From positions 1,560,001 through 1,592,000 of the forward strand of contig NC_008312.1 of assembly GCF_000014265.1 (NCBI RefSeq): DNA of 32,000 bases. The letters run 5' to 3'. Source of the DNA: Trichodesmium erythraeum IMS101 (GTDB taxonomy: Bacteria; Cyanobacteriota; Cyanobacteriia; Cyanobacteriales; Microcoleaceae). Below, one piece after another: positions 1,761-2,300 of the stretch. The translations under genes and the position numbers were made by a program. The notes below the pieces were generated by a model that was not told where the DNA came from, searched no databases, and saw nothing but the letters and a program-made list of their open reading frames with translations. Positions within the stretch are counted from its first letter, which is position 1; the number at the start of each line of letters is the position of its first letter.

Positions 1761-2300
1761 TTAATTAATAGCAGCAATAACTGTATCAAAGTAGCCTGCA
1801 CATTCACTGGCTAAACTAGAGCAATCACCTTTAGTAACACTCATCTTGCGTTGAGAAGCTGTATTGTTGATAAAAGCAACAGCTGCTGCTTTCATAATTC
1901 CCACTGCACGACTTGCACTTGTAGTTGGTACACCTAAAGCGATGTAGGTTTCTTTCAAACCATTTAAGCAACGATCATTGAGGATAGAATCATCCCGAGC
2001 TATTAGTGCATAGGTGACATAGCGGAGAATAATTTCTCCATCACGCAAGCAAGCAGCCATACGACGGTTAGGATAGCAGTTACCACCTGCCTGGATTAAT
2101 CCCGGGTTTTCACAGATCATACCTGAAACAGCATCAGATACAATACAGCTAGCGTTGCTACTAATAAAGTTCACTGCATCAAGACGTTTGTTGCCTTGAT
2201 CAATCAGTTCTTTGATGCTAGCTAAGGACTCTAGATCTGAGCTACTTGGAAAGCGACCTTGAGCATCAGCGGCATCAATTATCTCATGAACTGATGACAT
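1761..2300 (-). CDS. Phycoerythrin beta-like subunit paralog with a CpeA-like N-terminal ~26 residues (chimeric second cpeB copy)
   Basis: 179-aa intact ORF. Residues ~27-179 are near-identical to the cpeB at 2383..2916, with the beta cysteines conserved at C52/C63, C84 and C160. The N-terminus [26 protein letters not shown] matches CpeA ([27 protein letters not shown]), not CpeB. Confidence 0.85.

Follow-up and report, generated by a model that had tools for sequence, protein, structure and literature searches.

The haemoglobin anti-Lepore chromosome carries a delta gene, a beta/delta hybrid and a beta gene, and results from unequal crossing-over between adjacent globin genes. In every phycobiliprotein, the N-terminal X and Y helices clasp the alpha to the beta subunit. 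Minor variants of these subunits are known: ApcD and ApcF, which are ancient, widespread, whole-length paralogues with a role in energy transfer, replace one alpha or beta subunit at fixed places of the allophycocyanin core. Phycoerythrin beta subunits also occur outside their canonical pairing, bound to an unrelated alpha subunit in cryptophytes (1QGW) or held by scaffolds in the solved phycobilisomes of red algae (7LIX, 7LJ0), where they reportedly have no alpha partner. Here, we analysed a window of 32,000 nucleotides (nt) from the marine nitrogen fixer Trichodesmium erythraeum IMS101, in which proteins were identified by exact match to IMS101 records. This window contains a third gene of the phycoerythrin operon, Tery_0997, which lies between cpeB and cpeA and joins the N-terminus of an alpha subunit to the body of a beta subunit. 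Its topology is that of the anti-Lepore chromosome: both parental genes are kept, the hybrid lies between them and combines the 5' end of the downstream gene with the 3' end of the upstream gene, and the intergenic region is doubled. The Trichodesmium case differs in that the founding event was illegitimate, and in that the hybrid has persisted through a speciation and undergone gene conversion.

A hybrid gene between cpeB and cpeA

Rechecking of the open reading frame (ORF) coordinates placed three genes on the minus strand in the order cpeB, hybrid and cpeA, at the positions given in a preliminary description of this DNA. The first, cpeB (Tery_0998, Q117E8; 2383..2916), is an exact match to ABG50376/WP_011610763 and encodes a normal class-I phycoerythrin beta subunit of 177 amino acids (aa), which scores 331.2 bits against the NCBIfam CpeB profile (cut-off 275). 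The last, cpeA (Tery_0996, Q117F0; 1195..1689), exactly matches ABG50374 and encodes the 164-aa alpha subunit (NCBIfam CpeA, 303.6 bits). Between them, the hybrid ORF (Tery_0997, Q117E9, ABG50375; 1761..2300) encodes 179 aa in an unbroken frame, as previously described, and its product is listed as detected in two proteome studies. For the three locus tags we relied on the Snow et al. 2015 supplements (PMC4642986).

Tery_0997 has been annotated in IMS101 since 2006 as "Phycobilisome protein", and its relatives are labelled "bleomycin hydrolase" by NCBI. The literature searched yielded no earlier account of the gene as a hybrid or of three genes arranged in this way, in agreement with the preliminary description, and no main text there mentions a Tery_099x tag. 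NCBI names many cyanobacterial phycoerythrin alpha and beta subunits "bleomycin hydrolase" and some beta-like proteins "phycocyanin subunit beta" (P0002, P0010, P0134, P0148 and others), which misleads text searches.

The alpha-type head occupies codons 1-25 (2226..2300, minus strand) and corresponds to cpeA codons 1-26 minus one codon, with 74.7% nucleotide identity to the cpeA 5' end (synonymous divergence, dS, 0.48; nonsynonymous divergence, dN, 0.26). It comprises helix X and the following loop. With the one-codon deletion taken into account, a hand count gave 18 identities to CpeA over 25 aligned residues, one more than was first reported. When the N-terminal 36 aa were searched separately, as the preliminary description had proposed for discriminating an alpha from a beta origin, only alpha families were returned: the CpeA profile was the sole NCBIfam match (E = 7e-6), and PDB yielded 13 phycoerythrin-alpha chains (E = 1e-4 to 8e-3) followed by phycocyanin-alpha, with no beta chain among the 36 PDB matches. 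The hydrophobic stripe of the alpha helix X (I5, V8, I9, A12) is kept in the hybrid as V4, I7, I8 and A11, as is the alpha GRFPS motif in the T. erythraeum protein, while the replaced positions on the solvent side of the helix became charged (H5, E6, D9). The beta-type helix X typical of CpeB (MLDAFS...) is absent. Nonetheless, the whole protein does not belong to CpeA by score (71.8 bits vs. a cut-off of 225, NF058506).

The remainder, codons 26-179 and the stop codon (1761..2225, minus strand), derives from cpeB codons 24-177, and 137 of its 154 aa (89%) are identical to the neighbouring CpeB. The claim that this part is a close copy of cpeB is borne out at the nucleotide level by 95.7% identity over the last 327 nt, which falls to 77-84% over the first 60-135 nt. 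All the beta bilin cysteines are indeed kept: C52, C63, C84 and C160 (beta-50/61, beta-82 and beta-158) fall at invariant positions when 30 phycoerythrin-beta sequences are aligned, and both the Asn72 site GGNCY and the phycoerythrin-specific loop with C160 are present. The hybrid barely passes the NCBIfam CpeB cut-off (NF058508; 279.6 bits vs. 275), aligning over residues 10-178. Its AlphaFold2 model (mean predicted local distance difference test score, pLDDT, 79.7) begins with helix X (residues 2-13), which a loop connects to a long Y/A helix. The top Foldseek matches of this model are phycoerythrin beta chains (template-modelling score, TM, 0.77; 1.6-2.0 Å over ~144 residues of the body), which places the predicted structure in the globin-like phycobiliprotein fold. 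Compared with CpeB (PDB 3V57_B, 1LIA_B, 2VJH_B), the hybrid thus has the same body and predicted fold but differs by its 25 CpeA-derived residues and by a helix Y that begins with three additional residues; overall, it is two residues longer. We conclude that Tery_0997 encodes a hybrid protein and not a plain CpeB: score, cysteines and fold assign the body to the CpeB family, and the beta N-terminus is lacking.

A repeat finder run on the window retrieved direct repeats that all share a constant spacing of 611-622 nt. The longest covers 300 nt at 95% identity (1749-2048 vs. 2371-2670). A second one (59 nt, 80%) spans the alpha-type 5' end and includes the 16-mer CTCAGATCTAGAGTCC, found at both 2226..2241 and 1612..1627 as given in the preliminary description. 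Two further repeats are pieces of the spacers: the 82-nt cpeB/hybrid spacer (2301..2382, minus strand) aligns at 74-76% identity, with a 10-nt indel, to the 71-nt spacer preceding cpeA (1690..1760, minus strand), which agrees with the proposal of a duplicated and diverged spacer. Two repeat units can be delimited on the minus strand: unit 1 starts at cpeB codon 24 and ends with hybrid codon 25 (2847..2226, 622 nt), and unit 2 extends from hybrid codon 26 to cpeA codon 26 (2225..1612, 614 nt). They are 86.6% identical in a global alignment, the copies differing at 13% of positions.

The preliminary description had proposed a single tandem duplication of ~620 bp with breakpoints near codon 25 of cpeB and codon 27 of cpeA. 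The duplication itself accounts for the locus, with both parents intact, the spacer doubled, the period constant and the hybrid made of a downstream 5' end and an upstream 3' end. Its breakpoints lie where expected to within one codon, the exact positions being cpeB codon 24 and cpeA codon 26, such that the protein consists of CpeA residues 1-26 minus one and CpeB residues 24-177. Because the parental sequences, read at the junction, share only 0-2 nt, the event was an illegitimate and not a homologous recombination. A single unequal exchange, with one breakpoint near the 5' end of each gene, duplicated ~620 bp in tandem and left cpeB, the hybrid, cpeA and a second spacer. From the sequence, such an unequal tandem duplication almost certainly made the hybrid, and we regard its origin as settled.

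Distribution, gene conversion and decay in Trichodesmium

The search of related genomes suggested earlier was carried out and detected the same three-gene arrangement in eight independent T. erythraeum assemblies, i.e., the finished IMS101 genome and seven metagenome or metagenome-assembled genome (MAG) assemblies from Tara, ALOHA and other sources (loci L056-L063). Seven loci compared over ~5.3 kb (L056-L058, L060, L061 and L063, with the IMS101 window as reference) are 99.3-99.8% identical to IMS101. IMS101 has an unbroken hybrid ORF, as do 13 of the 14 T. erythraeum sequence variants retrieved. The remaining variant is carried by one 5,009-bp ENA contig (P0130 and P0128), in which a stop codon or frameshift near codon 136 is suggested; it could be a population null allele or a sequencing error.

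A decayed hybrid was found between cpeB and cpeA of MAG R02, assigned to T. thiebautii by Koedooder et al. 2022 (PMC9189399). Its junction (…LASIKE…) and its one-codon deletion are those of the T. erythraeum gene. An orthologue occupies this place in ten T. thiebautii assemblies. It has lost the Cys61-Cys82 region through an in-frame deletion of 41 codons and shows a C52S substitution, broken GRFP and DLES motifs and, in 4 of the 10 assemblies, a TAA stop. Its nonsynonymous population diversity is ~10 times that of the flanking genes, with a dN/dS ratio (omega) of ~0.5-1.2. The pseudogene alternative raised in the preliminary description holds for T. thiebautii. It does not fit the IMS101 copy, which shows no frameshift, stop or loss of essential residues.

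In genomes resembling T. miru (R04) and T. nobis (R03-type), only an 83-nt spacer separates cpeB from cpeA. Since T. thiebautii shares the junction and these two species show the undivided cpeB-cpeA pair, we place the duplication before the divergence of T. erythraeum and T. thiebautii; the hybrid was then kept in the former and lost by decay in the latter. The two species without the hybrid either never had it or lost it through a clean deletion, the repeats having recombined with each other.

No hybrid was found outside Trichodesmium among the 55 loci recovered in a genome scan of GTDB species representatives. GTDB matches aligning from residue 1 were considered as possible hybrids and proved to have ordinary beta N-termini. 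Likewise, among the best 120 of 5,676 phycoerythrin-beta-like matches, alpha-headed proteins come from Trichodesmium only. A degenerate junction pattern that matches 19 of the 19 known hybrid loci gave no match in JGI metagenome contigs, a collection that does not hold the known hybrid loci. Two cpeB-like genes ~5 kb apart were seen on plasmid pCW2 (54 kb; L016, L019) of Crocosphaera watsonii WH 8501; they are 81% and 70% identical to the hybrid body and show ordinary alignment ranges.

The divergence between the IMS101 paralogues is uneven. Synonymous divergence reaches 0.48 in the alpha-derived head (measured against the cpeA 5' end) and, against cpeB, 0.59 in the first 20 body codons, then drops to 0.18 in body codons 21-45, 0.08 in codons 46-100 and 0.06 in codons 101-154; differences between hybrid and cpeB are accordingly clustered at the 5' end (Fisher P = 1e-4). 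The zone most recently homogenised with cpeB lies at 1749..2048 (minus strand), its partner tract at 2371-2670, with 95% identity over 300 nt and a dS of 0.06-0.08 vs. 0.5-0.6 at the 5' end. Over the last 237 nt, cpeB and the hybrid are 94.9% identical within IMS101, whereas T. erythraeum and T. thiebautii orthologues are 86.9% (cpeB) and 88.2% (hybrid) identical. As the paralogues are closer to each other than to their orthologues although the duplication is older than the species split, the two genes evolve in concert, and the comparison attributes the ~95% identity at the 3' end to gene conversion and not to a recent duplication.

Among T. erythraeum assemblies (L056, L058, L060, L061 and L063), whole blocks swap between the two genes, e.g., the K/E alternative at VTxGD. 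Blocks born in the hybrid, such as LIARDDSIL with its G-to-R change at a near-invariant position, are found inside the main cpeB of some assemblies, and cpeB-type blocks inside the hybrid of others. These mosaic haplotypes come from short-read metagenome assemblies, which may mis-thread 95%-identical repeats, a risk that extends to cpeB marker studies; the evidence drawn from IMS101 alone is independent of them. In IMS101 itself, cpeB is derived at DSVNAI, and the ancestral DAVNFI survives in the hybrid. Gene conversion continues to exchange sequence between cpeB and the hybrid of T. erythraeum over their 3' two-thirds. The head of alpha origin remains paralogue-specific, and so do body codons 1 to ~45 and the final codon. 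Judging from these sequences, the hybrid appears to act as a reservoir of variation for cpeB, to which ongoing conversion would feed back variant blocks.

Expression and possible roles of the hybrid protein

A Shine-Dalgarno sequence weaker than those of its neighbours had been pointed out before the extra gene, and the spacers agree: TAGAGAAAAA precedes the hybrid, within 2301..2382, the AGGAGA that stands before both cpeB and cpeA having decayed to TAGAGA. Consensus scans and RNA folding detected no terminator-like or promoter-like site between the three genes, and both spacers are unstructured (z ~0; z = -0.2 for the cpeB/hybrid spacer). Downstream of cpeA lie two hairpins (1066..1180, minus strand; minimum free energy -48.1 kcal/mol, z = -7.0), the second of which has 26-nt arms with 88% complementarity and is followed by UUUGUUUUUUU; together with this U-tract they are likely the terminator of a three-gene operon. 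The consensus terminator scan missed this hairpin pair. Upstream of cpeB, the sole promoter-like match on the minus strand (3091..3119, 9/12 consensus) is a weak candidate, such sites being fewer than in shuffled sequence. Because nothing resembling a terminator or promoter separates the genes and strong hairpins occur only after cpeA, we infer that the hybrid is co-transcribed with cpeB and cpeA. It would thus be expressed from inside their transcription unit, with no terminator ahead of it and through a weakened ribosome-binding site, and proteome tables put its level at a few per cent of that of CpeB.

In the runs quoted from Snow et al. 2015 (PMC4642986), which required at least three proteotypic peptides and used Top-3 quantification, Tery_0997 amounts to 4-13 fmol on column vs. 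114-198 fmol for Tery_0998, i.e., ~3-10%. The protein list of Frischkorn et al. 2019 gives Tery_0997 a separate entry with ~130 spectral counts vs. ~300 for CpeB. This count is inflated since Tery_0997 and Tery_0998 share five tryptic peptides of at least five residues, including DGEIILR, and the same sharing confounds spectral-count proteomics of Trichodesmium phycoerythrin in general. Hybrid-specific peptides were sought in single-colony metaproteome supplements and not found there.

On balance, we favour explaining Tery_0997 as a hybrid produced by unequal duplication that most likely serves as a minor beta-type phycoerythrin subunit. The protein is predicted by modelling to fold as a phycoerythrin beta subunit, in which helix X would keep the alpha-type hydrophobic stripe and the GRFPS loop while helix Y would be three residues longer at the junction. 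With C52/C63, C84 and C160 conserved, it probably carries there the three bilins of CpeB and probably enters the phycoerythrin discs as a minor isoform. Purifying selection was assessed with a branch test on codons 1-57, which lie outside gene conversion, changes being placed by parsimony. For T. erythraeum, the count was 7 synonymous changes and 7 (up to 9) nonsynonymous ones (omega ~0.28-0.36), below the neutral expectation (binomial P = 0.02-0.04). The T. thiebautii branch, with 5 synonymous and 11 (up to 13) nonsynonymous changes, is not different from neutral. Furthermore, the first 65 residues of the hybrid vary across T. erythraeum solely by A13D and a GN insertion. The evidence that the T. 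erythraeum copy is under constraint is weak.

Several observations weigh against a subunit role. The two branches do not differ significantly (Fisher P = 0.46). Compared with the hybrid, cpeA is under stronger constraint (omega 0.09-0.14) and cpeB under constraint at least as strong (0.18-0.30). Even if no selection acted on the hybrid itself, conversion by cpeB could preserve most of its ORF. The IMS101 protein shows radical changes in a near-invariant beta motif, LLAGDAS having become LIARDDS (G-to-R and A-to-D), and one T. erythraeum contig has the hybrid split into ORFs of 135 and 44 aa. The gene was lost without replacement in T. thiebautii and is absent from the T. miru-like and T. nobis-like genomes, which makes it dispensable in the genus. 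Finally, the proteome tables are protein-level inferences and not peptide-level spectra.

These points are largely shared by the main rival to the minor-subunit reading, which is possible but clearly less probable: Tery_0997 would be an expressed passenger, a near-neutral duplicate kept intact mainly through repeated conversion by cpeB and heading for the decay observed in T. thiebautii. In addition to its decay or absence elsewhere in the genus, the radical substitutions, the split population variant and the non-significant branch contrast, it agrees with the weak Shine-Dalgarno sequence, with an abundance of ~5% of CpeB and with an omega of ~0.5 between the IMS101 paralogues. Against this reading, the unconverted 5' third (~70 codons) has stayed intact and hardly varies among T. 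erythraeum populations. The 16-residue stretch that is the alpha hallmark is kept in T. erythraeum and broken in T. thiebautii, nonsynonymous changes on the T. erythraeum branch fall below the neutral expectation as indicated above, and all the bilin cysteines are kept along with the GGNCY site.

More speculatively, the alpha-type arm may redirect the beta body into an alpha-like place, where it would pair with CpeB or with itself. The resulting protomer, made of beta bodies only, would carry six bilins instead of five and occupy a rare, defined place in the Trichodesmium rod as a distinct phycoerythrin isoform. Given the pseudo-twofold symmetry of the alpha-beta protomer, the alpha-type helix X of a hybrid homodimer or of a hybrid-CpeB pair would face a beta body, like one native half-interface, and its hydrophobic stripe is retained with charges on the solvent side. 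A few per cent of CpeB would also suit a rare, position-specific subunit. The scaffolded red-algal beta subunits (7LIX, 7LJ0) and the cryptophyte beta subunit (1QGW), which are among the structural matches of the hybrid, illustrate that a beta body can work outside its canonical pairing, but they keep a beta-type N-terminus and have linker or scaffold proteins as partners. We consider changed pairing improbable: the globin body is of beta type throughout, as is helix Y, the three-residue insert at the junction may simply loosen the arm, and sister species do without the gene. If true, such pairing might explain one of the phycoerythrin isoforms with distinct spectra that have been reported for T. 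erythraeum.

By analogy, the hybrid may behave like ApcD and ApcF or like the red-algal scaffolded beta subunits. Like the former, it is a low-abundance paralogue of a major subunit of the same genome, ~20-fold less abundant than CpeB, for which they offer a possible position-specific model. It differs from them in being confined to one genus and in being fused from two parents.

Lastly, that the tandem copy would be an assembly artefact or a chimeric read-through, as could be feared for any tandem repeat, is refuted for practical purposes by the agreement of the finished IMS101 genome with seven independent metagenome or MAG assemblies, by the 13% of positions at which the copies differ, by the diverged orthologue that ten T. 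thiebautii assemblies have at this position and by the separate listing of the protein in two proteomes.

The locus offers a natural helix-X swap on an otherwise normal beta subunit predicted to be chromophore-competent, and therefore a test of alpha/beta pairing specificity. It also displays the life cycle of a fusion gene, with its birth, retention in one species, decay in a sister species and absence from two others. The hybrid is narrowly distributed and low in abundance, and its function is putative.

Neighbouring genes and other loci

Divergent from cpeB, a CpeC-like rod linker is encoded at 3053..3907 (284 aa from the first ATG). Gene callers give it 278 or 264 aa in other assemblies, and its true start is therefore uncertain. 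The adjoining minus-strand ORF, 4055-5539, codes for a 494-aa ankyrin-repeat protein, and this neighbourhood is kept in all the T. erythraeum assemblies fetched (L056-L063). Further along, a 209-aa ORF (9535-10164) was considered as CpeT (Tery_0979) and rejected, as it corresponds to RdgB/HAM1.

IS630-family transposase ORFs are present at 11054-11557 (167 aa, N-terminal helix-turn-helix part only) and 13656-14747 (363 aa, TTG start). Other transposase genes (DDE_Tnp_4, IS1) lie just downstream of cpeA at T. thiebautii loci, which shows that the flanks of the operon are prone to insertion.

About 12 genes away and outside the window, Tery_0983, Tery_0984 and Tery_0985 appear in proteome supplements as a second pair of proteins annotated "Phycobilisome protein" and a linker. 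The abundance reported there for them, ~330-500 fmol per µg, is similar to that of Tery_0996 and Tery_0998, and T. erythraeum may have two sets of abundant rod phycobiliproteins.

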